A DNA stretch of 64,000 nucleotides, taken from Chlamydiota bacterium. Lineage in GTDB: Bacteria > Chlamydiota > Chlamydiia > Chlamydiales > RGXB01. A program made the translations under genes and the position numbers. Below, piece by piece: positions 42,335-58,200 of this stretch; position 1 is the first letter of the stretch, and each line of letters begins with the position of its first letter. The stretch covers positions 1 through 64,000 of the forward strand of contig CANLTW010000008.1 in NCBI GenBank assembly GCA_947494155.1. The letters run 5' to 3'. The notes under the pieces are model-generated. The model worked only from the letters and a program-made list of their open reading frames with translations, did no database searches and was not told the origin of the DNA.

Positions 42335-42540
42335 ACATTCTACACTAATAAAAAAAAGAGATTTGTCAATTGCAACTTTTTAAGCCTCCTTAAACGAAAA
42401 AAAAACGGTATTGAAAATTCTATTTCTCATGCTTTTCAATCAAGGTTAGCTAATCAAAAAGTTTACCCAAATTCGACCTCAATTTTTTAATTCATTTTTT
42501 TATTGCCTAAAAAAATTTGTTTGTTTTATGTCTCGGTTTG

Positions 42541-43950
42541 ATGATTAAGCGTAACTGGTTCATTCTTATTTTGTTAGCAGGGTGCAAACCAGCTCCTGAG
42601 ATATCCCCCAGCAAGTATGCACCCGCGGGAAATGCTAGCTTTTGGATCAATTCGCAAGCGGATAACAAACACATCGATTCTGTCCCTTTTTTAGACCTGG
42701 CCTCCCTCGAAAAACAACCGGGCGTTTTAAATATTTTGGATCTTTTTTCCTTGGGTTTGAATAACAGCCCTCTTACTAAAAAGACATTTTATGAGGCTCA
42801 AGCTGCTGCAACAAATTACGGTCTTTCCAGGGCATCGCTGTACCCGAATATAAAATTCAACGTATCCTACCTCAGGCAGCTTCAAGGTTTCCAATTAAAC
42901 GCTGCGCTTTATCAGTACTACACCACAACATGGGGTCCGGAGATGATGATGGACTTCACCTTAATTGACCTTACAAGACAGCCCAACATCGAGTCTAGCT
43001 ACTTCGGTCTATTGACCAGCAATTTAAAGCATAACTCTGAAGTCCAAAATGTACTTAGACAGGTTGCCGACACCTATTACTCTTACCTCTACCAAAAAAA
43101 TCTATTGATCGCTTACAAAAGCGACCTTGCAGACGCACAAGCTACCTATACAGCAGCTATTGACCGTCTCTCTTTAGGGATTTCGGATATCACAAATGTC
43201 ATGCAAGCTAAAAGCTCTTACTTGCAAAAAAAAATTAATGTAGCCGCTCAAGAGGCTACAGTTAAAAACGCGTTAATCACGCTGAATACAAATTTAGGCA
43301 TACCTGCACAAACGTCTCTCGTAGTGGAGGATTTCCCCGATCCTAAAACAATTCAAACCAGCTTTATTCAACCCGATGTCCTTCTTTCGATCGCCCAGCA
43401 AATGAGACCCGATCTAAAGGCGATCAAGGCCACCATTTTACAAAAAAAAGCTGACCTAAAAAAAGCGTATGCAAAAAATTACCCTTTGCTAAGATTTAAT
43501 GGTCGTGCAGGTCAATTCTACTTTAACCAAAATACGACTGATGGCGGCAACTGGTTAGTTCAATTCAATCTTGATACGCCTATTTTTACAGGCTGGCAAA
43601 TCAAGAACGAATTTAGGCAACAAATGGCTTTGATAGAACAATCCGAAAGCACTCTAAATCTTTTACAGCTACAAGTGATGTCTGGAGTGATGACACAGTA
43701 TAACAACCTTGTTTTGGCTTACGATCAGCTTCAATTAAATCAGCAATACCTTGATGCAACAGAGATTGAATACAAAGGGACGTTTGAGGGTTACGTGGCT
43801 GGAACAAATGACATTTTGAATGTATTGAACTCCCAGGCAAAGTTAGCCGATGCAAGAGCCCAGCTTGTTCAGGTGGTAAGCAACTATTTTCAATCTAAAG
43901 CTAAATTGACCTTTGAAATAGGTCTTATAAATAAAAACGAGGCACCATGA
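42541..43950 (+). CDS. TolC-family outer membrane efflux lipoprotein
   Basis: Lipobox LLAGC, two OEP-type repeats (YP...; RPDL...YP...PIFTG); start placed at ATG 42541. Confidence 0.9.
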   Translation: MIKRNWFILILLAGCKPAPEISPSKYAPAGNASFWINSQADNKHIDSVPFLDLASLEKQPGVLNILDLFSLGLNNSPLTKKTFYEAQAAATNYGLSRASLYPNIKFNVSYLRQLQGFQLNAALYQYYTTTWGPEMMMDFTLIDLTRQPNIESSYFGLLTSNLKHNSEVQNVLRQVADTYYSYLYQKNLLIAYKSDLADAQATYTAAIDRLSLGISDITNVMQAKSSYLQKKINVAAQEATVKNALITLNTNLGIPAQTSLVVEDFPDPKTIQTSFIQPDVLLSIAQQMRPDLKAIKATILQKKADLKKAYAKNYPLLRFNGRAGQFYFNQNTTDGGNWLVQFNLDTPIFTGWQIKNEFRQQMALIEQSESTLNLLQLQVMSGVMTQYNNLVLAYDQLQLNQQYLDATEIEYKGTFEGYVAGTNDILNVLNSQAKLADARAQLVQVVSNYFQSKAKLTFEIGLINKNEAP

Positions 43951-45026
43951 AAACAAGGTATCTGATCCCTTTAATCTCTTTTTTTATTTTTAATGGATGT
44001 GCTAAAAAAGGGGGAGCTTACCGTCCGCCCGTACCAAAGGTAAGATTGGCTACCCTAGAAACGATGACTGTTCCAGAGATTATTCCGGGCATAGGTCATG
44101 TAAGAGCTTTTAATTCAGCCCAAATTTGTGCCCAGGTAACTGGCTATCTTGTTAAGATTTCCTACACTCAGGGCCAGCTGGTACAAAAAGGGGATCTTTT
44201 AATTACGATCGATCCCAGAATCTACCAGGCTGGTCTAAAGACTGCTCAAGGGAATCTTTTAGAATCCAAAGCCAATAAAGCCTTTGCCCAAAATAAAAAG
44301 GAGCGCTATGCGAGCCTTATTAAGGATCAATTCGTCTCAGAATTAGATTTTTTTCAGTACGTATGCAACGACAAAGAACAAGATGGATTTGTTTTGATGA
44401 AAGAGGGTGAGGTAGATAAAAGTCAGACAAATCTTGATTTTTGTTATATCAAAGCCCCGTTTTCAGGAAGATGCTCCAAACAGATTAAAGATACTGGAAA
44501 TCTGATTGCAAATCCTGGAGAAAATTTAATGACCTTAAATCAGGTCACTCCCATCTATATCGATTTTTCCGTACCCGAGTATGAATATTCACGAATTATG
44601 CGTAGACAGAAAGAGCATGACCTTGAGGTGAGGGTAAACGTCCCTGGTTCCACCGGTACCGCTATCTCCAAATTGATTGTTGTAGACAACCAAATAGACC
44701 AAACAACCGGACAACTCCCTTTAAGAGCCCAGTATGAAAATACTGAAGAGATGCTTTGGCCGGGACAATTCGCAAGATGTGAACTCGTCTTGCAAGAGAT
44801 ACCCGATGCTTTAATGTGTCCGATTGCAGCTCTTGGTGTCGGCACTAAGGGGAAATTTGTCATAAAAGTCGATCCATCAAATCATGCTACTTACGTATGG
44901 GTAGAGACGGGTATGAGCAAAGAGGGTTTTATACAGCTCATTAGCCCCGACCTTGCTCCTGGTGACAGAATTGTCATCGATGGGCAAATCAACGTCGAGG
45001 ATGGCGCTACCGTACAACCAATCTAA
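43947..45026 (+). CDS. RND efflux periplasmic adaptor (MdtA-like)
   Basis: Lipobox FNGC, QVTGYL, IDPRIY, IKAPFSG, DNQIDQTTG, LWPGQF. Confidence 0.92.
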   Translation: MKTRYLIPLISFFIFNGCAKKGGAYRPPVPKVRLATLETMTVPEIIPGIGHVRAFNSAQICAQVTGYLVKISYTQGQLVQKGDLLITIDPRIYQAGLKTAQGNLLESKANKAFAQNKKERYASLIKDQFVSELDFFQYVCNDKEQDGFVLMKEGEVDKSQTNLDFCYIKAPFSGRCSKQIKDTGNLIANPGENLMTLNQVTPIYIDFSVPEYEYSRIMRRQKEHDLEVRVNVPGSTGTAISKLIVVDNQIDQTTGQLPLRAQYENTEEMLWPGQFARCELVLQEIPDALMCPIAALGVGTKGKFVIKVDPSNHATYVWVETGMSKEGFIQLISPDLAPGDRIVIDGQINVEDGATVQPI

Positions 45027-45481
45027 AAATCCCTTTTACCCCCTTTATCGTTCAAGAAGGCTTCATACTTTACTTCTGCTCTCCCTTTATTTAGTAGTAA
45101 AACCAAGATAAAGGGGGCTATGAAGCCCGAATAATTCTCTAGAAAATTTTAAAAAAAAGCTATTGCTGTGTTTTACTTTTGTACTCCAAGACTTCAACCC
45201 TCACCCTCCCCACCTTAAAGCGTTTTAAAAACTAAAACGTGAACGGGTGCTTTAGCACATTTTCCTTAAACTAGAGATGCATTTGAGCTACCCCATTTCA
45301 TTTTTGTTTTTTAGTTATATTTGAAAGCGTCCTATCAAATATAACTTAAAGGTTGCGATATAGAGATTGGTTTAATTTTTCTTTGTTTCGAGAGAATATA
45401 AAATGACCCCCCTCTCTCATTTTTTTTACAAAACAAGAAAGGTGTAGCGGTAAGTTTTTTGGTAACCAAGAAAAGAAAAGC

Positions 45482-48472
45482 TCAGCTTACACTAGGAGCT
45501 GATTTTTTGATTTCAGCTAAAAGGCTGTCTCTAAATATCCCTGGCTCGGACGCAAGCTCTTGATAGCTCCCTACCTGAGCGACTTTTCCTTTATCCATTA
45601 CATAAATGCGATCCGCATTTTTGATGGTGCTGAGCCTGTGGGCTATCACGATTCTCGTGATATTCAGCTCATCGATATTTTTCGATATGAGGTCTTGCGA
45701 CTCAGAATCCAAACAATTGGTCGCTTCATCCAAAATGAGCATACTCGGATTCGATATAAGAGCTCTGGCGATTAAAAGACGCTGAGCCTCCCCATTACTT
45801 AATGAGGAGCTTTCCGGTTGAACTACAGTGTGTAGACCCATACCCATTTTTTCTAGGTCTTTGTCGAAGTTAGACATTTTCACTGCACGGTCTATCTCTT
45901 CTTTTGTATAGATCCCGCCACAAACAATGTTACTGTACACAGTTCCTGAAAAAATAGAGCCATTTTGTAGCACAACACCCATTTTTTTTCTTAGTTCGCG
46001 CAGATTGAGGTTGCGAATATCTTTATTATCAAAATAAATAGTTCCCATCTCCGGAGTTTCAAAACCGAGTAAAATCCTCAAAAGTGTAGATTTGCCACAG
46101 CCTGTAGATCCAACAATTGCAATAAATTCCCCGGGTTGCACATCAATCGATACGTTTTCCAAAACCAAAGGGAGCTCTTTTGAGTATCTAAAAGAGATAT
46201 TATCTACATGGACTTCCCCTTGTAAATTATCGGGTTTGATTTTATCCTCCTCCGGCTCTATCTCCCCTTCTAGAATAACTTTTGCCCGCTCCCAAAGGGG
46301 AAAAATCGTTGCTATGTTAACCAAAGTTCCTACAAGCGAGGTGATGCCCGAAGAGAATGGGATATAAGCCGAAAAGAATCCCACAAGTTCCCCAATCGAA
46401 AAAATATAGTCGTTGCCGAAGGATTTACTAAAGAATAACCTGTCTGAGATGATGGAGAAAAAAATCAAGTAAGAGATGATATTTGTGATATAATTGATCA
46501 CCTGGACGATATTCGTTAAAAAAAACGACTGGTTGAAATAAAGGCGTTCTTCTGCAAAAAAGTTACACCAATAGTTAAATGCTTTGGTCTCAGCTCCCTG
46601 GCTCTTGATTTTTGCTATACCCGATAGCAACTGTATAATCACACCGTTGATAAAACCTTTGATCTTAAGAAGTTTTCTTAGAATCAGGATTTTATTATAA
46701 AGCACAATAGTATTTATTGTGGAGACGAGGAATACTATTAGAAAACCTATGCGTGCTAATTCCAAAGAAAAATGGCGCATAGCTACAAAATAAAAAACAG
46801 AAAAAATACCCGTTAAAAGAACATTTGAAACAGACTGTGTGCAAATATTTTGGATTTGATTCATCGATTGGGCTCTTTGGACCAAGTCTCCGGCACTAAA
46901 TTGTCTGAAAAAATTTACCGGTAGTTTTAAAAGCCGATCCCAAATAGCCGATTCGATTTTGAAAGAGAAAAGAATGGACAATCTCATGAAAGCTACTAAG
47001 TTTACGACCGAAAAGAACAGCTGGCTGAAAATCACCAGAAACATCCCGATGACCACTTCAAAAAACTCCCCCCGATGACCTAGCTGAATCACATTTAAAA
47101 ATAGGGTCTGATTCAAAAAAGGGAAGGCTATTCCTAAAAGCCCCCCAAGACAACCATAGATAAAAATCGATAAGAATGTCTTAAGATCGTATTTTGTGAA
47201 AAAAGTCAAAAATAGGGTCTTGAGATTGAGTTTCCCTTTCGGAAAAGGGAAATAGAGGGAATAGGCTTTTTTATCGAGTTGGTCATAAATTTTTTTGTCC
47301 AGCTTGGTCAGCTGCTGTGATATTGGGTCATGAACGTAGTAACTTATACCTCTAAAATTCAAAAGAGCGACAGGTTTATTATCTAATGTGAAAGCAAGTA
47401 TGGGTAGGCTATCGTATTTCCAAAAGCGATCCACTAAGTTTATTTCCCTTAATCTTACCCCATTTTTTTCACAAATTTCAAAAAGTCTCGGTAGCGGTTC
47501 TTTACGGACTAGAAGGTTTTTAGTAAAAGTAAAACCCATTTGCCGACCGATCCAAAAACAGGCTGTAAATATGGGATCGCTGTAATCGGTTAGGTCTTGG
47601 GACTGTTTGAGTGAAAGGATCGAAAACTTTTTCAAGGTCTCAGAAAGGACCCCCTTTTCCTCAAATATTTTTTGTTGGGATAAAATCTTTTCCTCTTTTT
47701 GTTTTTGAGGAAAATAAAAAAGAGTCGTTCTTTTAAAAGTGCGTTGTTGAATTAACCTCAGTGATTTCCAGATATCGGGATGAAACAACACTCTTTCTTT
47801 GGGAATTGTAGCCATTCTGGTTTTTTTGAGAGCGATAAGATTCCAGGAATCAAAGAAAGGGAATATCCCCAAAGACTCCTCCCACCCAGTAGAATTTTTT
47901 GAATCAATATCGACATTCCCCTCCAAAATCTCCATCCAGTGTTCGTGATCAATACACTCGCCAGTATTTTTTTTCTTGATAGTGAAATGTTCACCCTCTG
48001 CGATTTCCACAGGTTTTTCAAAATCGATGATTCTTGAAGAATTTTTATTGGATTCTTTTTGAGTAAAATTTTTTCGGGTTCCGGTAATGGTAGTATTGAT
48101 CCTGAGAAGAATTTCTAAATTTAGCTCAGGGTGTTTTTCTAGAACACCAATCAATTTTTCGCTTGTCAACTTGACCAGCTTCATAGAGGTAAAATTATAA
48201 AGAAAAAAACCTTTATGGGTTTTAGATTCTTGGTTGAATAAAAAATAGACGTCCCCTTGATTAAGAGAATGAATCATCTTCATGGGGGCTTCTGTGATTC
48301 CTATAACCTGTTGCTGGCAGAGCTGTTCTTGGACATAAACACCGCCAGACCCTTCGATCACAAACCAGATGCATTCCTCGCACGGAAAAAATGATTTGGT
48401 ATTTCTTGGGATGAATTTTTCCTCAAGTCCAAGCCCCTTTATTGTCTCAATAAATGCAAACGAATCTTCCAT
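45482..48472 (-). CDS. NHLP-type bacteriocin export ABC transporter, permease/ATPase subunit
   Basis: cNMP-binding-like N-terminal region, TM domain with AIWDRLLKLPVNFFRQFSAGDL, NBD GSTGCGKST / LSNGE / ILDEAT / IAHRLST. Confidence 0.9.
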   Translation of the reverse strand: MEDSFAFIETIKGLGLEEKFIPRNTKSFFPCEECIWFVIEGSGGVYVQEQLCQQQVIGITEAPMKMIHSLNQGDVYFLFNQESKTHKGFFLYNFTSMKLVKLTSEKLIGVLEKHPELNLEILLRINTTITGTRKNFTQKESNKNSSRIIDFEKPVEIAEGEHFTIKKKNTGECIDHEHWMEILEGNVDIDSKNSTGWEESLGIFPFFDSWNLIALKKTRMATIPKERVLFHPDIWKSLRLIQQRTFKRTTLFYFPQKQKEEKILSQQKIFEEKGVLSETLKKFSILSLKQSQDLTDYSDPIFTACFWIGRQMGFTFTKNLLVRKEPLPRLFEICEKNGVRLREINLVDRFWKYDSLPILAFTLDNKPVALLNFRGISYYVHDPISQQLTKLDKKIYDQLDKKAYSLYFPFPKGKLNLKTLFLTFFTKYDLKTFLSIFIYGCLGGLLGIAFPFLNQTLFLNVIQLGHRGEFFEVVIGMFLVIFSQLFFSVVNLVAFMRLSILFSFKIESAIWDRLLKLPVNFFRQFSAGDLVQRAQSMNQIQNICTQSVSNVLLTGIFSVFYFVAMRHFSLELARIGFLIVFLVSTINTIVLYNKILILRKLLKIKGFINGVIIQLLSGIAKIKSQGAETKAFNYWCNFFAEERLYFNQSFFLTNIVQVINYITNIISYLIFFSIISDRLFFSKSFGNDYIFSIGELVGFFSAYIPFSSGITSLVGTLVNIATIFPLWERAKVILEGEIEPEEDKIKPDNLQGEVHVDNISFRYSKELPLVLENVSIDVQPGEFIAIVGSTGCGKSTLLRILLGFETPEMGTIYFDNKDIRNLNLRELRKKMGVVLQNGSIFSGTVYSNIVCGGIYTKEEIDRAVKMSNFDKDLEKMGMGLHTVVQPESSSLSNGEAQRLLIARALISNPSMLILDEATNCLDSESQDLISKNIDELNITRIVIAHRLSTIKNADRIYVMDKGKVAQVGSYQELASEPGIFRDSLLAEIKKSAPSVS

Positions 48473-48475
48473 ATC

Positions 48476-50689
48476 CTACTCAATAGACTCAGATAAAATT
48501 GCAGCTTTATAAAAACCCTCTTGAAGCATCAGTTCCTCATGCGTACCCCTTTGGACCACAGAACCATGATCTAAAACAAGAATTTCATCGCAATCACGGA
48601 TTGTGGAGAGCCTCTGCGCTATAATAAGGGCACTGCAACCCCTTTTTCTGAGGTTTAGGCTGACAAGTGCTTCCGTTTTATAATCCAAAGCACTGGTTAT
48701 CTCATCGGTTATGATCAGAGTAGGGTCTTTAATTAGAGCTCTTGCTATTTCCATCCTTTGCCTTTGCCCACCACTAAAAACACCACCCCCCTCGATCAGG
48801 TGAAAATCGTAACCTGAAGCTCTCTTCATAATATCATCATGAATACATGCATCCTCAGAGGCCCTTATTAAAGGTTCATCATCTGCATGCTCATCCCAAA
48901 AAGTGAGATTGTCTTTTACGGACCCCTCGAAGAAAAAAAGGGTAGAATCCACATAGGATACAGAGGCTTTAAATAGAGCTTCAGGAATTTCCTCTATGGG
49001 TTTCCCATCAAACAAAATTTTTCCTGACCAGGGTTTGAAGAGAGTTGATGCCAGGCGTGCTATAGTTGTTTTTCCACTCCCCACGGGACCCACAATGCCG
49101 ATTCTTTTTCCCGGCTCCAATTTAAAAGAGATGTTTTTTATAAATGGGGGTTGTAGTGCACTAAAGCCAAAAGAGACATCCACGAACTCTAAGTAGCCAT
49201 TAAGTTTACCCTCCGAGATGTGACACACATTTCCTGAATTACCTAGCGATCCTTTTTCGGGTTGGGTTTGTAAAACATCATCCAATCTTTGCACGTTGAT
49301 TTTCATCGTTTGTAAATTATTCGACATATTCATTAACCCCTGAACAGGCGTCATGAAATAGGCTAGAAATGATTGCAAAGAGAGAACCATTCCAATGGAA
49401 AGATTCCCTTGATAAATCTCTATAGTCCCAACCGTTAATAGAATCACATTGCCTAATTGCATCGTTAATGAGGGAAACATCGTAAGAATAGTACTACGAA
49501 TTTCCGTCTTTAGTTCGGCATTACGCATCTTCGCATAATAACCCGAAAAAACCCCAAAAGATGCGGACTCATTTCCAGCAGATTTTATTGATTCTATAGA
49601 GCGTAAAATACCGATTCCATAACCCACGGATTTACCATACTCCTGCTGCATGATTGTGAAGGCATCATTTCTGGAACGATTGATCAGAAAAAACAGTAAA
49701 ATATTGAGAGCCGCTAAAGAAAGCCCCAAAATAGCAATAGGGACACTGTAGATGAAAATGACCGCTAGGTAAAAAAAGATTAAAATAACATTGAGGGCGA
49801 GTGTGATCAAACTACCTGAAATCAGAGAGGATACCTCTTCGTTCAAGGTAAATCTCCAACCAAGTTCACCGACCGCTCTTTGACTGAAGAAGCCAAAAGA
49901 GAGTTTCATAAGATGGGAAAAAAACACTGTAGAGAAATCTATACTCATCTTTGTATAAAATTTTCTCAACATTTTCGCTTGTGTAATTCTTAACCAAACG
50001 GTCACTACCGTAACAATAAAGAGCAGTCCTACCAGAAGTAAACCGAAACTCGAATTGTTGGTGGTGAGAACTTTATCGTAAAAAAATTGTATAGAAATAG
50101 GCAAAAAGAACCAGGGCAAAAGGAGAAACACAGAAAGAAAAGAGAGATACGAAAGGGGGCCGTAATATCCTTTAAGACGACGAAAAAGGGGGCGTATAAG
50201 CTCAGGTTTACGACCTGAAGGTTGAAATTCTTTAGTAGGCTTAAAGGTCATTATAAAACCTGTAAACCCCTCTTCAAAACTTGCCCAGCTCATCCTTTTA
50301 GGGCCAGAGGCAGGGTCATTCAAGTAGACAAATTTCTTGCTAACACCCTCAATCACGAGAAAATGGTTAAAATTCCAGTAGACAATACTCGGTAGAGGGA
50401 CTTCGATAATCTCATCTATTTCATAGGTCCAACCATCCGCCTCAAGTCCAAGATCCTCTCCTACTTTAATAATATCATCTGCATCGGATCCATCTCTAGT
50501 CACTCCGCAAAGGACACGTAGGGTCTCTAGAGGAACAAATTTACCGTAGTAGGCCAAAATTATAGCCAGAGCCGCTGCTCCACATTCTACCATCTCCATC
50601 TGAATAATGGTGGGCGTGCGAACCCGTCTAATCCCCCTCAAAGAGCACCAGAAGGTCGATGTGAAGATATTTTTTAACCAGGAAAACAA
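48476..50689 (-). CDS. NHLP-type bacteriocin export ABC transporter with C39 peptidase (PCAT)
   Basis: RVRTPTIIQMEMVECGAAAL (Cys), WNFNHF (His), LNDPA (Asp); NBD GPVGSGKTT / FSGGQ / TDEITS / IAQRLST. Confidence 0.94.
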   Translation of the reverse strand: MFSWLKNIFTSTFWCSLRGIRRVRTPTIIQMEMVECGAAALAIILAYYGKFVPLETLRVLCGVTRDGSDADDIIKVGEDLGLEADGWTYEIDEIIEVPLPSIVYWNFNHFLVIEGVSKKFVYLNDPASGPKRMSWASFEEGFTGFIMTFKPTKEFQPSGRKPELIRPLFRRLKGYYGPLSYLSFLSVFLLLPWFFLPISIQFFYDKVLTTNNSSFGLLLVGLLFIVTVVTVWLRITQAKMLRKFYTKMSIDFSTVFFSHLMKLSFGFFSQRAVGELGWRFTLNEEVSSLISGSLITLALNVILIFFYLAVIFIYSVPIAILGLSLAALNILLFFLINRSRNDAFTIMQQEYGKSVGYGIGILRSIESIKSAGNESASFGVFSGYYAKMRNAELKTEIRSTILTMFPSLTMQLGNVILLTVGTIEIYQGNLSIGMVLSLQSFLAYFMTPVQGLMNMSNNLQTMKINVQRLDDVLQTQPEKGSLGNSGNVCHISEGKLNGYLEFVDVSFGFSALQPPFIKNISFKLEPGKRIGIVGPVGSGKTTIARLASTLFKPWSGKILFDGKPIEEIPEALFKASVSYVDSTLFFFEGSVKDNLTFWDEHADDEPLIRASEDACIHDDIMKRASGYDFHLIEGGGVFSGGQRQRMEIARALIKDPTLIITDEITSALDYKTEALVSLNLRKRGCSALIIAQRLSTIRDCDEILVLDHGSVVQRGTHEELMLQEGFYKAAILSESIE

Positions 50690-50700
50690 AGCTTTACCCC

Positions 50701-51756
50701 TCAGTTAAAAAGATAATTTATGGGGGCATCTTCAGTTATGCGAACACGAAGGTGGCAAAATTCGGGGGTTATACGTATGTTTTCAGGCCCCTTTCCTGAT
50801 GTCCATGCATACCCTGACGGATCGTTGGGGTCTTTTTGAATTTCCACCCGAATGTTATATTTTGGTACGATACCACCAATAAATTCTATAAAAGTTTGAT
50901 CTTTTCCTATTAATCTCAAAAACCTCATTGAGGTTCCTGGGTAAGGATCCACGTATACAACTTTCCCTTTTAGACTACCGTAAATAGGATTGACATACTT
51001 TTCAAAGGAGATGAAAACCTCCATACCCTCAGCAATTCTGCCGCCGTTAGTTACATCAAAAAAGCCGTAGACATCAATCGGCTCCCCCCTATCAAATGGG
51101 GGATCCACAAGCCCTAAAGCTAGACCCGCTTGAGCAAACTCCCCTGCTCCCACATAACGGGCTATCACTTCACCTTCTACTTCCGAATAAATCGGAACCA
51201 AAACGGGATTATCCTGCATGCCCTGTAAAATTTGCGTTTCGTTTTCCAACTGAGTACGTAATAATAACGACTCAGAGGAATCGCCATTTTCTATAGCCTT
51301 TTTTAGATTGATCTCGAGCTGGTGAACTTTTGTCCCCTGGTCATTAAAAGAATCAAGAAAGTTTTTTTCATACAAATAGGCTATTACGGTGCTTTTATTT
51401 ACTATTTGTCCCTGACTAAGCTCGACAGAATAAATAAGGCCGTCTGATTTAGCGTATAAATAGAGAAGACCCTCCTTTTGTACAACAAGGCCACGACCAA
51501 CGGCATCTGTTGTGATTCTACCGTTGAATAACCAAATGAATAAAAAGCACACAATCAGACCTAAGCAGGCTAAACCTACCCACTCTTTAGGGCGGATTAT
51601 TTGGATTAGACTATTGAGATCTTCGGGGGAAATAAATTTGTCAACTTTTCCCTTTCTAAAAAAAGTTTCCTCCTCATGATCTGGAGGGGTAGCCTCTCCC
51701 GGATTTTCCGACTGGGGATTTGTTTTCAGCTCCTCCCCCTTTTTTTCCTCATCCAT
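50701..51756 (-). CDS. NHLP-type bacteriocin secretion protein (HlyD family)
   Basis: FR...SPEDLNSLIQI, TM helix, YGSLKGKV, SGYAWTSGKGP, C-terminal PINYL. Confidence 0.9.
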   Translation of the reverse strand: MDEEKKGEELKTNPQSENPGEATPPDHEEETFFRKGKVDKFISPEDLNSLIQIIRPKEWVGLACLGLIVCFLFIWLFNGRITTDAVGRGLVVQKEGLLYLYAKSDGLIYSVELSQGQIVNKSTVIAYLYEKNFLDSFNDQGTKVHQLEINLKKAIENGDSSESLLLRTQLENETQILQGMQDNPVLVPIYSEVEGEVIARYVGAGEFAQAGLALGLVDPPFDRGEPIDVYGFFDVTNGGRIAEGMEVFISFEKYVNPIYGSLKGKVVYVDPYPGTSMRFLRLIGKDQTFIEFIGGIVPKYNIRVEIQKDPNDPSGYAWTSGKGPENIRITPEFCHLRVRITEDAPINYLFN

Positions 51757-51817
51757 AAATTACAATAAACCCCATAGTTTGTTTACCTAATCCAATAAGG
51801 TAATAAAGTCAAAGAAA

Positions 51818-53425
51818 TTAAAAAGTTAAACAGTCAAAATATCGTAAAAAATTACGTGATTTACTTTTGGGAAACAGCGATTTTAGCACCGGTCTACCCA
51901 ATTCTCCGCTAACGGCGCTCTTTACTAAAAAGAACTGTTTTTTTAATGAGGCCTGAGAAAGGTTTTTCACATTTTGAATGAAATTATCCATAGGGGATTT
52001 TTTAAAAATTTTTATTTTTTTCTTTTGGAATTTTGGGGTATACAAAACCTCATCTGCTCTGATCAAAAAGTGGGGGATATTTTGGGTTTTCATCTCTTTG
52101 ATTTCCTGAGACCGCATTGACCTTGTCATTTTAGGGACAACCCAATAGGGGTGCGGTAGATTTTTTAAAGCGTTATCCATTTTGCGGCTATTTTCTAAGT
52201 GAAACAAAGAATCAGCGACAATCTGGCCGTACATAGCTGTACCTTTGTATACAATTCTTATCAATGCTTCAGAAAAAGGTCGTAGAGCACCCTCATCAGA
52301 GGTAAGAGCCTCCAAAAGGGGCTTTTTAACACTACATAAAAAAGAGAACATGTCTAAAAAACCGTTCAAAAACGCCTGCTTATTCCCTTTTGAAAGCCTG
52401 GAAAAACTTTTTGCGCTAATTCTATTTTTCTTATCTGTGGAAAATTCTAAACCAATCCCTGCCTCTTCCTTGTAGCTTTTTGAGCACCGCATATGGTAGG
52501 AAAAAAAACCGGTTCTCAAAGCGCAACGTTCGAATATTCCATGGGATCTTTGATCTAAAAAATTGCCGGACAGAAGACACTCTGCATCGATAACAACAGG
52601 GTCCACCCCTGTTTTTAAAAAGTTTTCTGAATGAAAATCGGTGGATCCCATAACGGTGGTTAAAGCGGTCAGAGCTCCAAGGTTGTTATGGTATTTTCTG
52701 ACTGTCTCTAACTTTTTTGAAGACGTTTTTTTTATAAACTTATACCAACCGTAGCTTCCCCGATCGAGACAATCAACTTTCTTTGGAACATAAGGGGAAT
52801 TGTAGCTACGAAGCCAGTCACTTAGGGCGCAAAAAGCGAGATTGATTTTAGCACTGTTGGGTTTGTAGACCACTTTTCCATGAATAAAGGTAAGTACTGC
52901 TGCTGATCTTTGCTGGTTATGCAAATCCCCTTTATCCAATTCCAATCGCTTTATGTACCTTTTTTTGTCGGATGGAACCATTCCAGTAAAAGGGGTTATA
53001 AGATCCAAATCCGATTTGACCCGATCAAATATCTCCGTTATATATTGCACCCAATATCCAACATTCAAATCCAATAGCTCTTTTAAAAGAGGGGTTTTTT
53101 TCAAGGTCTTTTCCCATCCTCCATTTAAAAGGATCCCTAGAAAAGGTTTATATAAAGGATTATGAAGCGGATTAAATTCTTTAAATAGGATCGTATGCAG
53201 TTTATATCCATAAATTTTTTGATCGTAGTTATCGAGCTCATTTAGAAGTGTGGGTGTAATAAGGGTGAGTATGCGATAGGAAAAATTTTTAAAAAGATCG
53301 TATTGAGCCTTAGCATCTAAAATCGGATCATAAAAAAGGGGGTTTAAAAGATTTTGGTAATCCTTAAGAATGAACCCCATGATTTCCCTAAAAGGTACTC
53401 TTTCTTTTAAAGAAAAACCCTTCAT
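51818..53425 (-). CDS. Stand-alone LanM N-terminal dehydratase domain (DUF4135), no cyclase
   Basis: GDLH, VVYKP, GWYKFI, TDFHSEN, VIDAE, RIVYKGTAMY, NIPHF; ends at 535 aa without a LanC domain. Confidence 0.9.
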   Translation of the reverse strand: MKGFSLKERVPFREIMGFILKDYQNLLNPLFYDPILDAKAQYDLFKNFSYRILTLITPTLLNELDNYDQKIYGYKLHTILFKEFNPLHNPLYKPFLGILLNGGWEKTLKKTPLLKELLDLNVGYWVQYITEIFDRVKSDLDLITPFTGMVPSDKKRYIKRLELDKGDLHNQQRSAAVLTFIHGKVVYKPNSAKINLAFCALSDWLRSYNSPYVPKKVDCLDRGSYGWYKFIKKTSSKKLETVRKYHNNLGALTALTTVMGSTDFHSENFLKTGVDPVVIDAECLLSGNFLDQRSHGIFERCALRTGFFSYHMRCSKSYKEEAGIGLEFSTDKKNRISAKSFSRLSKGNKQAFLNGFLDMFSFLCSVKKPLLEALTSDEGALRPFSEALIRIVYKGTAMYGQIVADSLFHLENSRKMDNALKNLPHPYWVVPKMTRSMRSQEIKEMKTQNIPHFLIRADEVLYTPKFQKKKIKIFKKSPMDNFIQNVKNLSQASLKKQFFLVKSAVSGELGRPVLKSLFPKSKSRNFLRYFDCLTF

Positions 53426-53988
53426 TATGCTTTACTTCCTTTTTTGTCTAAATAAACAAAGGGAAGTTCTGGGTCTGTCTCTAAGTCAAAAGATTTAGCG
53501 AGAAAGATTTTTGCCTGAACCGTAAAAGCACATCCAAGGTAGCCTAAGATCTCCCCTTTGGATATGCCCATTTTGGCTAAACTTTGCAGATCTTTTGAGG
53601 AAATTTTCCCCTTTTTATCAAAGTATTTCCTTAAAAACCGTAATACCGCATGGACTAAAGCATCCTCGGATTTCCCTCTATAGTTAAGATCCGTTTCTTT
53701 TTTTACTCCCTTTCTCTCTTTCAATGGAGAGCCATTTACCATTTGATATTGATACAGATCTCTTATGTACGGGGTATTGTAGTAGCCGGCCATCATAATA
53801 TTGATCGCTCCCCCCAGCCCTTTTGGGTAGTTGGTGACTTTTAAGGGGATAAATTTTTGATAGCTTAAGATAAACGCATCTGAAGATTGCATTAGCCTGA
53901 GTCCTCTAAGCCGAAAACCAAAAGTAGAGACCGAGTTATCAAGACGTTGTTGCGCTTTTTTATTAAGGCTTGGATAATCTATGAACAT
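53425..53988 (-). CDS. AhpD/carboxymuconolactone decarboxylase-fold protein lacking CxxC
   Basis: Family pattern RGKSED...AVLRF...KKGKISSKDLQSLAKMGISKGEI; the NxCxYC position reads YNTPYI. Confidence 0.7.
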   Translation of the reverse strand: MFIDYPSLNKKAQQRLDNSVSTFGFRLRGLRLMQSSDAFILSYQKFIPLKVTNYPKGLGGAINIMMAGYYNTPYIRDLYQYQMVNGSPLKERKGVKKETDLNYRGKSEDALVHAVLRFLRKYFDKKGKISSKDLQSLAKMGISKGEILGYLGCAFTVQAKIFLAKSFDLETDPELPFVYLDKKGSKA

Positions 53989-53994
53989 ATAAAA

Positions 53995-54465
53995 TTACAA
54001 CTCCTCAAAAACCACGAATGAATTAGCATGTTTTGTGATAAAATCTGACCAATTTAAATGGCCACACAGATCCACAATCTCCCGATTGTCAAAACCTGCA
54101 TGGATTAAGTCGGTAACATCCTTTTTTTTGATATTTGTTTTTGAACCGAGCATTTTTAGGGTAAATTCCACTGCTGCTTCAGCCATCTTTTCCTCTTTTT
54201 CTGACATTTTTTGAGAAAGATTTCGATTAAGTGCCCCCGCAAGGTAACGGCGCTGAAGAAACTCGGCTAAGGATAATTTGCAACCATTAAATTCTGCAGT
54301 CGCTAAAAAGACTCCAAGTTGCACAACATAAGGGATGGTGCTTTTTTGTAACCCTTTGATGTATCCTATATACCCTTTTTCATATTCTGACTTACCTTTT
54401 CCCATTTTAGACCAGGGCTCGATAAGACCGTTTTCATTTATTTTTTTACGACTTTTTTTTATCAT
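53995..54465 (-). CDS. AhpD/carboxymuconolactone decarboxylase-fold protein, CxxS variant
   Basis: LATAEFNGCKLS, AAVEFTLKM, DVTDLIHAGFDNREIVDL. Confidence 0.75.
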   Translation of the reverse strand: MIKKSRKKINENGLIEPWSKMGKGKSEYEKGYIGYIKGLQKSTIPYVVQLGVFLATAEFNGCKLSLAEFLQRRYLAGALNRNLSQKMSEKEEKMAEAAVEFTLKMLGSKTNIKKKDVTDLIHAGFDNREIVDLCGHLNWSDFITKHANSFVVFEEL

Positions 54466-54747
54466 CTGGGTAAACCTGTAAAAATTTAATCACTTACAAA
54501 AGGAAGGGTCTCTTCAAACTAGCATCTGTTTATGGTTTTTTGACTTTTAAGTGCTCTTTTTTTGTTTTTGCTAGTTCATTTCTCCTTAAATTTTTAATTG
54601 CCACATAAATAAAAAAGAATACAACAAAAAATTAAGAAATCTCCCCCGTCAAAAAAAGATAAAATTTTTTTCATAATATCGGCCAGCTGTGATGCACTTT
54701 GGACTAAACTAGATCTATCGAGCTCTTGTCTGCTTCGTTTTGTTTAG

Positions 54748-54782
54748 AAAAAAGACTACAAATACTTAGTTTTTGTAGTCTT
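54748..54782 (-). terminator. Intrinsic terminator after the precursor gene
   Basis: AAGACTACAAA (54752-54762) / TTTGTAGTCTT (54772-54782) 11-bp stem running into a U tract on the minus strand. Confidence 0.75.
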
Positions 54783-54824
54783 AAGAAAAAGATGTGAATT
54801 GGTTTATTTTTTATTTTGTCGGTT

Positions 54825-54941
54825 TTAAGGTTTAGAACCCGGCGTTGTAAACCCACCTCCGCCTCCGGTAATTTTCTTTTCACGATTCTTATCTGAGGAT
54901 TTCTGCTCTTTTTTGCCCGGGTTTTTAGGTTGCTTTTTCAT
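54825..54941 (-). CDS. Putative RiPP precursor, 38 aa, double-glycine leader: MKKQPKNPGKKEQKSSDKNREKKITGG|GGGFTTPGSKP
   Basis: Too short for the ORF track; AAAGGGA RBS 8 nt before ATG; SDKNREKKITGG resembles the LSxxELxxIxGG consensus; first gene of the cluster; followed by terminator. Confidence 0.85.
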   Translation of the reverse strand: MKKQPKNPGKKEQKSSDKNREKKITGGGGGFTTPGSKP

Positions 54942-55004
54942 GGTCTATATCCCTTTTGTTTTCTTTCAATTATCCTAAATCAAAAAAAACTGCAAATGGT
55001 TGAA

Positions 55005-55010
55005 ATTATA
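55005..55010 (-). promoter_or_regulatory. Candidate -10 box for the precursor gene
   Basis: Perfect TATAAT on minus strand about 64 nt upstream of the ATG; no clear -35 and region is AT-rich. Confidence 0.35.
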
Positions 55011-55212
55011 TTTCTTTACAAACATATTTTTTAAAAAACTCCTCTATTCACTTGATTCATAGGATTAAAAAAATTTTCTCAAATGAGCGTTTTTTTCTTG
55101 ATTCAATAGGGTTTCTTCAGTATGAAAAATATTTTAAACCTTAAATCGACATGGTTTTGAGTATTCAAAGCCTTCGATTAGGGACATACGTTTGATGACT
55201 GTAAGGGGACCT

Positions 55213-58200
55213 ATGCATTTTTCAAAATCTTTCATAGAGAGGCCGGTTGCTACACTTCTTGTGATGCTTACTCTCATAACATTTGGAGCGTATGCACTAT
55301 CCAATCTTCCGGTTTCAGTTTTGCCTAATACTACAGCAAACACGATCTCCGTTTCGGCAAACTATCCCGGTGCCTCTCCCGAGCAGGTAGCAACCCTTGT
55401 GACAGGGCCGCTCGAAACCCAATTTCTTTCCATTCAGGGAGTAGAATCGGTAAATTCTTCCAGTACCTACCAAAACTCTTCGATCCTTTTAAAATTCCAC
55501 CCCTCAATCAACATCAACGATGCTGCAACCAATACCCAGCAAGCCATTTCCCAAGTGCAAGGGCAGCTCCCCCCCTTACCCAATCTCCCCTCCTATACAA
55601 AGGTGAACCCCTCAGATACGCCTATTATGTATATAGTGGTCTATTCCGATACACAAGACCAAAGCTCGATTTATGACTATGCTAACAACATTATTGCAAG
55701 GCAGCTGGGCACAACTGAAGGGGTTGCTAATGTGCAGGTGTATGGAAATCCCTTTGCAGTGCGCATCCATATTGATCCGGAGTCGATCGCAGCTAAAGGA
55801 ATTACCCTTGCAGACGTCTCTAATGCCATCACTCAAAACAATCCTGTCAAACCTACGGGAAAGTTCTATGGACCCAATTTTACGATTATCACGACGGCAG
55901 ACGGGCAGCTCTTCAGCGCCGATGACTATAATAATATGATCATAAAAATTCAAAATGACAATGTGGTACGACTCACTGATATCGGAAGAGCTTTTAATAG
56001 CGTCCAGAATACGAACCAAAATATTCAATGGTTCAACAGAGGCGATTCAAAGGGAAAAGAGGCCGTTTTTATAGCTATACTTAAACAGAATAATTTCAAC
56101 ACGGTCACAGTATGTTCGAATCTTGAGAGTAAAATGTTGGAGCTGACCCCTTCGATGCCAAGGTCCATGAAATATGACATCTGTTTTAATCAAAAAAATT
56201 ATGTTCTCGAATCGGTGAAAGATATCGAAATGACTCTATATCTTGCCTTTATTTTAGTGGTAATTGTCGTTTTTCTTTATTTGGGAAAAATTCGTAACAG
56301 TGTGATTCCCCTGATCACGCTCCCCATTACGATCACTGGAACCTTCATCCTGATGTTTTTTCTAGGTTATAATGTGGATGTAATGTCTTTGTCGGCTATT
56401 ACTTTAGCTACCGGTTTCCTCGTGGACGATGCTATTATTGTTCTGGAAAATATCGTCCGGCACGGGGAGGAGGGGATGCAGCCCTACAAAGCCTCTATCG
56501 TCGGTTCTAAGCAGATTTTTACGGCAATTATTTCCATTTCGGGTTGCCTTTGCGCTGTTTTTATCCCCATGCTGTACATTCCAGGTCTTATGGGACAACT
56601 GTTTAGTGAAATGGCCGGGGTAATGATCGCGGCGATTCTTTTATCCGGTTTTATCTCCGTTACTTTGACTCCGATGCTTTGCAGTCGCTTTATTCCCCCT
56701 TACGACCCAAATAAAAAATCACGGGTAGAAGAGCTTTCTATAGCCTTCAACGAATTTTTTAGAAAATTTTATGTCCCGGTTCTCGCCTGGTCTTTACACC
56801 ACAAAAGGTCTATACTTGGGCTTTCTTTCCTTTTATTGATCACCTCAGTTGCCATAACGATAAAAACACCAAAAGAATTTCTCCCTGATACCCCTATTAA
56901 CGCGGTCATCGGTTATGTAGTGGCAGACGAAAGCGCTTCCCCGCAAAAAACGGAAGTTTTCCTGAAAGAGATTGCAAAGCACACCCTTAGCAACCCCTAT
57001 GTTCTCGGCCAATGTACCGTTTCCGATAGTCCCAGCGATAATATGGGTATTATTTTTATGATACTTGACGATTCAAAAGGGAGTATCCCTTTTGATCGTG
57101 TTTTACAAGATTTTTATGTGAAAAGCCGAAGTGTCCTTGGCTGTAAGGTTTTCTTTAAACCTCTCCCCTTAATTAACGTGCAGTCGGGAAGCTCATCTGC
57201 GGGGCGTGCTACATTCCAATATGTAGTGGCTTCACAAGATGAAAAAATCATGGAAGAAAAGACTAAAGCACTTATGAATGCCATGAGAAAAGAGCCCGAA
57301 TTTTTCCTAGTAAACTCCGATCTTTCCGTCGGAAGCCCTGTTTTTAGCATGCACATCGATCGAGATAAAGCAAGAGCATACGGAAATATTACCCCTCTTA
57401 ATTTTGAAAATAACCTCGCTTTAGCTTACGGGCAGACGTATGTTTCTACTATCTATAGGCCTAACTCGGTTAACTATGTGATCCTTGAGCTGAAAAACAA
57501 ATTCAAACAAACTCCTGGTGAGATGGATCGCCTCTTTTTGGGTCCACAGGTTCCTGGCGCAAATGTCAGCCCATGGGGGAATATGTTCTCCACAACAGAT
57601 ACGACTTCTGCGACAAACACCACATCCCTTTTTAAGGGTACACTCAAAGCCGAGCCGAACATGATAAACCACTACAACTCGCTCCCCTCAAGCACGATCT
57701 CTTTTAATATCAGTACTGGATATACAATTTCTCAAGCACTCGAAAAACTCGCTATTATCGGTCCTCAAGTTTTTGAGGGAAAAGCTGTAGGATTCTCCAG
57801 CGGGGCAAGTGCAGAATTCCAAAAGGCTATGGTACAGCTCTTCATTCTTACCGGTTTGGCTATTTTTGCGATCTATATCATCTTAGGGATCTTATATGAG
57901 AACTTTTTGCACCCTATCACCCCGATTTCTGCTGTTCCTTTAGCCGCATTTGGGGGTCTTTTGACTCTCTACCTACTGGGTTTTAAACTCTCCATTTATG
58001 CCATGATCGGGATCATCATGCTCATGGGAATCGTGATGAAAAATGGTATCTTGATTGTCGATTTCGCCCTTGAAGAGCTTGAGAAAAATCCACAAACCAC
58101 AGCCGAAGAGGCCATCACCAAAGCCTCTATGCTCAGATTTAGACCTATCCTCATGACCACGTTTGCTGCGATGATGGGAGCGGTTCCGGTTGCTCTGGGG

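Follow-up and report, generated by a model that had tools for sequence, protein, structure and literature searches.

The window analysed here is a 64,000-nt stretch of contig CANLTW010000008.1, which belongs to a 97.6%-complete chlamydial genome (G000). Within a resistance-nodulation-division (RND) efflux operon it holds an island of seven minus-strand genes: a small gene for a glycine-glycine (GG) peptide, genes for two small proteins that we call A and B, a gene for a LanM-type dehydratase of the DUF4135 family, and three genes for a peptide exporter. The set resembles the clusters that make peptides synthesized by ribosomes and modified after translation (RiPPs), and our analysis concerns what the island does and for which peptides. 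The comparisons below draw on six congeners of the window genome (G001-G006), a metagenome contig (L020), and three relatives of the island proteins (P0002, P0003 and P0011). The features of the locus are as follows.

45027..55191, no strand assigned: inserted island, bounded on one side by the stop of the RND membrane-fusion gene and on the other by the RND pump gene.

55005..55034, minus strand: promoter-like site of the peptide gene (TTAAAA, 18-nt spacer, TATAAT; 10/12 matches; a consensus match only).

54825..54941, minus strand: 38-aa precursor-like peptide, in which a G5 run separates the Lys-rich leader MKKQPKNPGKKEQKSSDKNREKKIT from the core FTTPGSKP.

54745..54782, minus strand: hairpin and U-run 3' of the peptide gene, terminator- or attenuator-like.

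53995..54465, minus strand: protein A, 156 aa, degenerate CMD/AhpD fold (CMD, carboxymuconolactone decarboxylase).

53425..53988, minus strand: protein B, 187 aa, degenerate CMD/AhpD fold; its stop overlaps the DUF4135 start.

51818..53425, minus strand: 535-aa cyclase-less LanM-type dehydratase, DUF4135 only.

50701..51756, minus strand: 351-aa HlyD-type periplasmic adaptor (TIGR03794 E 2.4e-42, PF13437).

48476..50689, minus strand: 737-aa C39 peptidase-containing ABC transporter (PCAT).

45482..48472, minus strand: 996-aa second ABC permease/ATPase, without a peptidase domain.

42517..43950, plus strand: TolC-like outer-membrane factor of the split RND operon, possibly the outer-membrane exit for the exporter.

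A preliminary description of this DNA had listed the seven genes on the minus strand in this order, and the open reading frames (ORFs) of all seven were found where it had placed them. It had also put the six large genes at most ~60 nt apart; the measured gaps are 6, -1, 61, 11 and 3 nt. A further 359 nt separate gene A from the peptide gene upstream of it. Family scans agree with its broader claim of a RiPP-like maturation and export cluster that combines a GG peptide, a cyclase-less LanM-type dehydratase and an exporter of the NHLP type. Rfam gave no match at E ≤ 1 across 44900-55300.

The 535-aa protein matched DUF4135 (PF13575) at E 1.8e-51 in a Pfam scan. Of the 932 positions of the LanM model TIGR03897, its alignment covered just 10-271 (208.5 bits, cut-off 304), and no match to LANC_like (PF05147) was found in the protein. 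A PF05147 search of the whole genome likewise returned nothing at E ≤ 1, so that a LanC-like cyclase was not found; the proposal of a cyclase-less LanM dehydratase is borne out at the level of both the protein and the genome. HMMER detected homology to the dehydratase domains of LicM2 (E 9e-28) and CylM (1.7e-11). These class II lanthipeptide synthetases (PDB 5DZT, 6ST5) have the same kinase-like N-terminal domain and the same catalytic residues; they differ in carrying a LanC-like domain, and the window protein ends where such a domain would begin. In the Atlas model of the protein, residues 1-535 align to DUF4135 domains with a TM score of 0.84, and the Atlas holds stand-alone DUF4135 proteins of 460-570 aa from several phyla. 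A word-based homologue search found only three close relatives; P0002 is 79% identical to the window protein and P0003 63%. In a quick tree the clade of the window protein sat among LanM-like sequences at the end of a long branch (2.01), which names no donor.

According to the accessible part of the CylM study (PMC4550811), phosphorylation relies on Lys274, Asp347, His349, Asn352 and Asp364, and phosphate elimination on Asp252, His254, Arg506 and Thr512. We mapped these positions with HMMER alignments to CylM and LicM2 and with a MAFFT alignment that included 28 chlamydial DUF4135 proteins, P0002 and P0003. The window enzyme keeps all five phosphorylation residues (K188, D263, H265, N268, D280) and all four elimination residues (D167, H169, R390, T396), and all nine are also kept in P0002 and P0003. 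Ten full-length chlamydial LanMs with the canonical residues (L022-L030, L038) agree with it at all nine positions, while an eleventh long protein (L037, 869 aa) diverges at four of them.

Two characterised enzymes of this architecture allow the residues to be interpreted. PoyF of the polytheonamide pathway appears in the accessible text of PMC9505594 as a stand-alone LanM N-terminal domain that dehydrates Thr. It resembles the window enzyme as a cyclase-less LanM domain in a RiPP pathway; it differs in its substrate, a proteusin with an NHLP leader in which it acts on a single Thr, and in the radical-SAM-rich cluster around it, and neither those genes nor that leader occur in the island. In the phospeptin system of 'Ca. 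Eudoremicrobium malaspinii', as far as the available portions of PMC9259500 and PMC9505594 describe it, the cyclase-less LanM domain EmbM is the sole maturase, and the precursor EmbA has no Cys, carries a GG cleavage site and yields a short linear product that carries its modifications on neighbouring Thr residues. The elimination residues of EmbM are mutated, and the enzyme goes no further than phosphothreonine (PMC9259500, same portion). The island shares with phospeptin a cyclase-less LanM domain and a GG-bearing precursor, and EmbA is Cys-free like the island core. Unlike EmbM, which was compared by its description and not by alignment, the window enzyme keeps D167, H169, R390 and T396; moreover, the EmbA leader is Nif11-like whereas the island leader is Lys-rich, and phospeptin has neither a CMD-like pair nor a dispersed precursor family. 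Given the conservation of all nine residues, the window enzyme looks competent for full dehydration on sequence grounds, which would make it PoyF-like and unlike EmbM.

The gene for the presumptive substrate is preceded by an AAGGGA Shine-Dalgarno-like (SD-like) site 10 nt before the ATG and followed by a hairpin and U-run with a folding free energy of -12 kcal/mol (z -2.9; 1 in 200 shuffles as good). Its core, FTTPGSKP, contains three Ser/Thr and no Cys. Contig L020, the sole return of a metagenome scan for the cluster, is 98.4% identical to the window over the cluster (168 mismatches in 10,400). In the peptide gene the SD-like site, 90 of 90 leader bases and the hairpin are identical between the two, whereas 10 of the 24 core bases differ and FTTPGSKP becomes QAIPGGRP. 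At the cluster-wide rate of 1.6%, 0.39 core differences would be expected (Poisson P ~1.5e-11). A frozen leader beside a rewritten core is as expected of a precursor peptide under diversifying selection, and the two near-identical strains would provide a clear case of such a contrast between leader and core.

The peptide has relatives elsewhere in the genome. An ad hoc filter for ATG-initiated ORFs of 20-70 aa with an MKK start and at least 33% Lys/Arg before a G-run passes 15 ORFs in G000, compared to 0-2 in each of 10 shuffled genomes. Ten of the filtered ORFs align with M1, K2, K3 and GG invariant, and a profile built from this alignment retrieves 12 of 20,064 small ORFs at E < 1e-3, the window peptide among them (E 9.5e-9). 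The other members lie on contigs C17 (five, three of them in tandem), C18 (two), C10 (two), C7 (one) and C14 (one). They share a layout: after an MKK start and a Lys/Arg-rich leader of 20-30 residues come a GG(G) run and then a variable core, 8-48 residues long. The genes are intergenic in every member with listed surroundings (C14:6836-7072 left out), and by our own count most have an SD-like purine run before the ATG.

Across 401 sampled genomes of the phylum, the family profile matched a single one, the window's own. Within the genus it gave 10 matches in G000, one in G002 (E 3.7e-6), two weak ones in G006, and none in G001, G003, G004 or G005. The G002 match is the syntenic orthologue of the C7 peptide, with the leader and terminator hairpin nearly unchanged. 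It carries a frame-preserving 3-nt indel and retains both Cys; its core differs at 6 of 14 residues, a greater divergence than in the flanks. A loose filter found no family peptides at the syntenic FabI flanks in the congeners, where the intergenic DNA does not align. Among known leader types, the NHLP leader model TIGR03793 reached a best E of 0.11 in the window genome, inside a 314-aa frame, and the Nif11 leader model TIGR03798 gave no match there at E ≤ 1. On contig C17 (G000:C17:22759-23252) three family genes follow one another in tandem; the second and third have in common both the upstream ACGAAGAGGACAA-ATG and their N-terminal nine residues, MKKQPKAKV, indicating recent tandem duplicates with different cores.

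Since the ORFs are short and of low complexity, they might not be genes at all but chance Lys-rich frames in A-rich intergenic DNA, with the true substrate encoded elsewhere or lost. In line with this, the RNA-library contigs described below cannot show transcription. We consider this explanation very unlikely. The filtered ORFs far exceed those of the shuffled genomes, and the profile found nothing in the 400 other genomes of the phylum, indicating that low complexity alone does not yield profile matches. Chance frames would also leave unexplained the invariant M1, K2, K3 and GG, the SD-like sites that precede the ORFs, the frame-preserving indel in G002, and the perfectly conserved leader beside a hypervariable core.

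The preliminary description had proposed instead a self-contained cluster with one precursor, in which the 38-aa peptide becomes a short linear peptide of dehydrobutyrine (Dhb) and dehydroalanine (Dha), perhaps further modified by the A and B pair, and is cut after GG and exported. The peptide gene lies immediately upstream, is encoded on the same strand and has a promoter-like site and a hairpin of its own; this is consistent with the proposal, as is a core with three Ser/Thr and no Cys next to a dehydratase with intact residues. The proposal fails to account for at least 11 further genes of the same leader type elsewhere in the genome, which make the island peptide one of at least 12 paralogs. 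Nor is the product conserved: QAIPGGRP has no Ser, Thr or Cys, so the island peptide cannot be a dehydratase substrate in the 98.4%-identical L020 strain. The absence of a CxxC..H motif from A and B, described below, also argues against it. Taken together, these data make a one-precursor cluster quite improbable.

We favor a reading in which the island is shared maturation and export machinery for the whole Lys-rich-leader family, one enzyme set acting on many precursors as for the prochlorosins, and we hold its chances of being correct to be about even. Among the cores, Ser or Thr is present in 12 of 12, Cys in 9 of 12, and exactly two Cys, often near both ends, in 5 of 12; paralogues with two Cys include those at G000:C7:17955-18071 and C17:24401-24547. 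The nine cores with Cys hold it together with Ser/Thr, whereas the island core has none, and thioether or disulfide products are therefore possible for the paralogs. This changes the earlier statement that the product is not a lanthipeptide.

The three remaining island genes encode the exporter. The best-matching family of the 351-aa adaptor is TIGR03794 (145.3 bits, cut-off 156.2), and that of the 737-aa protein is TIGR03796 (833 bits, cut-off 853.3). The latter has a Peptidase_C39 domain (PF03412, E 2.9e-32) at residues 25-153, followed by ABC_membrane and ABC_tran, and contains the stretches QMEMVEC and NHFLV...LNDP, which we take to be the C39 catalytic motifs of the PCAT. The 996-aa protein matches TIGR03797 best (690.9 bits over residues 299-981, cut-off 709.4) and has no C39 domain. 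An NHLP-type three-gene exporter, as first described, is supported by these best matches over nearly the full length; the scores are all slightly under the curated cut-offs. The ~300 N-terminal residues of the 996-aa protein extend outside TIGR03797 and are conserved in congeners, which align from residue 1. For this extension the Atlas gave a weak lead (score 0.86) to cyanobacterial clusters with a cyclic nucleotide (cNMP)-binding domain.

Exporters of this type have a wider distribution than the rest of the island. A full-length TIGR03796-type PCAT with a 990-residue partner and a HlyD protein is found in G001 (two copies) and G003, while G002 has exporter fragments and G004 and G005 have generic ABC matches only. 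Three further loci (L066-L068), which may overlap with the congener genomes and are not counted as independent, encode proteins 51-60% identical to the window exporter among housekeeping neighbours, with no DUF4135, A or B. At L068 (exporter 59% identical), a gene for a 27-aa basic MKK...GGY peptide with a hairpin lies at 8647-8760, ~180 nt upstream of the HlyD gene. A G8 run at its GG codons leaves the frame uncertain, and a one-base length change would fuse the leader to another tail. One short basic GG peptide also adjoins one of the G001 exporters. Since the G001 and G003 exporters occur in genomes that lack DUF4135, the exporter does not need the dehydratase. The pairing of exporter and basic GG peptide looks older in the genus, within which DUF4135, A, B and the expanded peptide family are confined to the G000/G006 lineage.

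This distribution is consistent with a different role of the machinery, in which the GG peptides are unmodified or only disulfide-bonded, resemble class II bacteriocins or signals, and are cut by the PCAT, with DUF4135, A and B as later additions that act otherwise (as a peptide kinase, on a few peptides, or on another substrate). The congener exporters that occur without DUF4135, A and B, in one case with a basic GG peptide, fit this account, as do the five cores with exactly two Cys. A phosphorylation-only homologue without a cyclase has been characterised, going by the accessible part of PMC9259500, and other chlamydial stand-alone DUF4135 proteins have altered elimination residues. The window enzyme, however, retains all four of them; its gene is translationally coupled to B and forms one operon with the exporter, and Ser or Thr occurs in all 12 cores of the window genome. 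We judge this account to be rather unlikely, and prefer shared maturation of the family.

The roles of A and B are harder to assign. Neither matched a Pfam family at E ≤ 0.1, and A matched TIGR01926 at 21.3 bits (E 1.9e-4), below the cut-off of 81.8. For each of them, no more than three close relatives came up in word-based searches. When 1.84 billion representatives were searched exhaustively with a profile of B, three proteins were returned at E ≤ 0.001: that of its own cluster, P0011 (E 8.3e-4, near end-to-end), and a repeat protein that we took as spurious, its match consisting of 25 short stretches. P0011 is a bona fide CMD-family protein (PF02627 E 2.6e-12) with the motif CAYCTAAH. In hhalign comparisons to P0011, B reached 93.3% probability and A 73.7% over 121 columns, and a reciprocal P0011 search of the window genome found only B (2.9e-7) and A (1.6e-6). 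The motif reads CKLSLAEF in A, with C62xxS65 at the CxxC position and F69 at the His, and TPYIRDLY in B, where both Cys and the His are replaced (T, I, Y). The term AhpD-like, the least secure element of the preliminary description, is thus apt for remote whole-domain homology by profile comparison with P0011, but the pair has no Pfam match and has lost CxxC..H. This loss makes peroxidase-type redox modification unlikely, and with it the idea that the pair modifies the peptide in that way.

P0011 has the same sequence as the canonical CMD protein of G006 (170 aa), and the canonical CMD gene stands beside a short-chain dehydrogenase/reductase (SDR) gene in four of five congeners (L051-L054). 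The canonical gene was not found in the window genome, whose only CMD-fold genes are those for A and B. Given that the nearest detectable relative of B is the housekeeping CMD gene of the genus itself, the comparison suggests that A and B were probably derived from this gene by duplication and rapid divergence within the lineage. They resemble the CMD/AhpD family (PF02627; P0011) in end-to-end profile alignment, all-helical prediction and a predicted intertwined dimer, and differ from it as a putative heteromer of two paralogues within a peptide-export operon and in the replaced motif.

A and B are predicted to form a heterodimer. The modelled complex has an ipSAE of 0.90, compared to 0.00 for the best of three controls, and passes a mark that 116 of 157 solved complexes and 2 of 215 mismatched pairs attain. 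The complex runs share at least 90% of their contacts, with a partner pLDDT of at least 84. CMD-family proteins are known as solved homodimers, and the pass may merely mirror that likeness. Searches of PDB sequences with the A and B profiles gave 0 matches for A and one at E 0.61 for B.

A more ambitious interpretation gives the pair a central part in a new RiPP class. A chlamydia-specific Lys-rich GG leader would direct at least 12 hypervariable cores to the cyclase-less LanM enzyme, and a neofunctionalised CMD/AhpD heterodimer, one subunit of which keeps CxxS, would replace LanC as thiol partner or cyclase, or process Dha/Dhb. If true, lanthipeptide-like chemistry would have gained a new cyclase or adaptor fold in the CMD/AhpD heterodimer, through duplication of a housekeeping redox gene. 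This specific proposal strikes us as distinctly unlikely.

For shared machinery in the broader sense, we envisage the following sequence of steps. Translation of at least 12 small genes would come first; one of them lies in the island and the rest in intergenic gaps at other sites. The LanM-type enzyme would phosphorylate Ser/Thr in the cores and eliminate phosphate to give Dha/Dhb, and where a core has Cys (9/12) thioethers might form spontaneously or with help. The predicted A-B heterodimer, catalytically degenerate, would act as an accessory to the dehydratase, most likely as a substrate adaptor or in thiol/Dha handling; this is the least certain step. The B stop overlaps the dehydratase start. 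The C39 domain of the PCAT would cut after the GG run, and the PCAT, the second ABC protein and HlyD would export the core, probably through the adjacent TolC. The part assigned to TolC is suggested by analogy with known PCAT/HlyD/TolC systems.

Several observations weigh against this model. The dispersed peptides are tied to the island solely by co-occurrence in one lineage, and their modification is presumed; in the L020 strain, the island core has nothing to dehydrate. G001 and G003 have full-length exporters without DUF4135, A and B and without family-profile peptides, although the profile may miss diverged leaders in congeners. G006 carries the cluster, yet its peptide matches are weak (E 0.13 and 0.25) in a genome that is 79% complete. 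Double-glycine leaders have conserved hydrophobic positions (-4, -7, -12), and the family leaders lack this usual pattern: GG is invariant in 10 of 10 aligned members, and the -4 residue is I, V or L in 6 of 12. The NCBIfam leader families gave no match in the ten peptides scanned, and the exporter trio, for all its nearly full-length matches, falls just below the NCBIfam equivalog cut-offs. The AlphaFold2 monomer models of A and B are poor (pLDDT 44.5 and 43.7), with shallow alignments. Charge complementarity between the leaders and A, B or DUF4135 was considered and rejected, since the three proteins have isoelectric points of 9.2-9.7 and the leaders are also basic.

A close parallel is provided by the prochlorosins, in which ProcM acts on many ProcA precursors, the lanthipeptides have Nif11 leaders, and a TIGR03794/03796/03797 export cassette includes a PCAT whose C39 domain cleaves after GG. 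The window genome is similar in having one LanM-type enzyme that would serve many dispersed precursors with a common leader and hypervariable cores, and the same type of three-gene exporter. It differs in the absence of a LanC cyclase domain from the enzyme and from the genome, in a Lys-rich leader that is neither Nif11 nor NHLP, in two extra degenerate CMD-fold proteins, and in the chlamydial host. The RiPP-like combination of LanM-type dehydratase and PCAT exporter is of a known kind; here it comes with a new leader family and a new accessory pair, and lacks a cyclase.

Literature searches on DUF4135, AhpD or CMD together with RiPPs, and on chlamydiae, did not find this gene set or Lys-rich double-glycine leaders, most subscription journals being outside the search. 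No paper was found for carboxymuconolactone decarboxylase with RiPP and precursor peptide, and none relevant by title or abstract for AhpD with RiPP. The DUF4135 and RiPP literature did include a paper on dehydrazoles (PMC10676384), of which part was available. Within the literature searched, the preliminary claim that the gene set is undescribed is thus supported for the set as a whole, but phospeptin is already a characterised class with a cyclase-less LanM enzyme and a GG-cleaved precursor. Similarly, only genome-mining predictions were found for chlamydial RiPPs, in agreement with the claim that none has been characterised, but predicted RiPP-like clusters in chlamydiae are already in print, as seen in the accessible parts of PMC9666466 and PMC13229535.

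The locus is of interest on several counts. It is compact enough to be tested by co-expression, with one dehydratase, two small partners, an exporter and a dozen natural substrates. Its leader type falls outside every curated leader family scanned, and the CMD/AhpD fold may have acquired a new role in it. It also suggests that obligate symbionts of freshwater hosts in this lineage secrete peptides that evolve fast; such peptides could serve in competition with other microbes or in dealings with the host.

The cluster is flanked upstream by genes for a TolC-like protein and a membrane-fusion protein (MFP) and downstream by a gene for an AcrB-like pump, all on the plus strand. In all three cluster-less congeners that hold the operon (G001, G003 and G005) the TolC, MFP and AcrB homologues are contiguous, with 0-6 nt between the MFP end and the AcrB start. 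In the window and in G006 the cluster is placed between MFP and AcrB, which identifies it as an insertion of ~10.2 kb. The window TolC gene is 73-95% identical to congener TolC genes at the same operon position. GC content is 0.37-0.41 within the island, compared to 0.40-0.46 across most of the window. Between G000 and G006, TolC and MFP are 92-95% identical, and DUF4135 and B 81-82%; the A/peptide region of the cluster is unassembled in G006.

The island is lineage-specific, in an uncultured freshwater chlamydia. The DNA occurs, at least in part, in at least 20 runs of freshwater or lake metagenomes; among the runs listed, 24 came from 19 studies, and at least 14 DNA runs contain half or more of the sampled words. 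Two RNA libraries, each from a different study, yielded contigs that cover 26 of the 30 bins into which the cluster was divided. Such contigs cannot show transcription, RNA libraries may contain DNA, and the uncovered bins are uninformative.

Several smaller observations concern the locus and its counterpart in G006. The TTG start listed for the AcrB-like gene (55192-55213, plus strand) is probably too early, since the congener start, ATG CAT TTC (MHFSKS), comes directly after the MFP stop and GAGG. The right island edge of the window retains TAAGGGGACCTATGCAT, indicating that the pump gene was severed from the operon promoter by the opposite-strand insert. In G006 (L012, G006:C1 3606-6601) the second ABC gene spans three overlapping frames (residues 1-470, 447-695 and 663-994), which reflects either decay or assembly errors in a 79%-complete metagenome-assembled genome. 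Between the peptide hairpin and gene A lies a 26-aa ORF, MKKILSFFDGGDFLIFCCILFYLCGN (54594-54674, minus strand), that begins with MKK, carries GG at residues 10-11 and has three Cys in a hydrophobic tail. It lacks an SD-like site and Lys enrichment, and may be either another small peptide of a different kind, perhaps for immunity, or noise. On the minus strand at 54560-54580, ~100 nt upstream of gene A, the two-codon mini-ORF ATG AAC TAG begins 4 nt after a perfect AAGGAG.

Other DUF4135 proteins of the phylum are also of note. A separate clade comprises stand-alone full-length DUF4135 proteins of 499-547 aa (L031-L036, from G026, G030, G097, G017, G103 and G324). None of the six has the P-loop Asp and His on which elimination by CylM depends (replaced by A/S and R/I/K/P), while all retain the kinase residues and the R...T pair; in G017, G026 and G030 an ABC-transporter gene adjoins the DUF4135 gene. 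On their sequences these proteins are candidates for phospeptin-like peptide kinases. A large chlamydial family (L039-L041, L043-L049 and others) of ~400-700 aa, mostly ~500, aligns with no more than the first half of the DUF4135 model, with ExH replacing DxH in the P-loop and the other catalytic residues retained. It is multicopy in some genomes, with 4 matches in G237 and 4 scored among 10 candidates in G279, and has housekeeping neighbours in G016 and G057. Finally, a locus in another chlamydial genome (L013, G013:C3 5658-13303) encodes a full LanM (957 aa, DUF4135 and LANC_like) beside two NHLP-type precursor genes, together with a YcaO-TfuA pair and a ThiF-like gene, and looks like a lanthipeptide/thioamide hybrid cluster.

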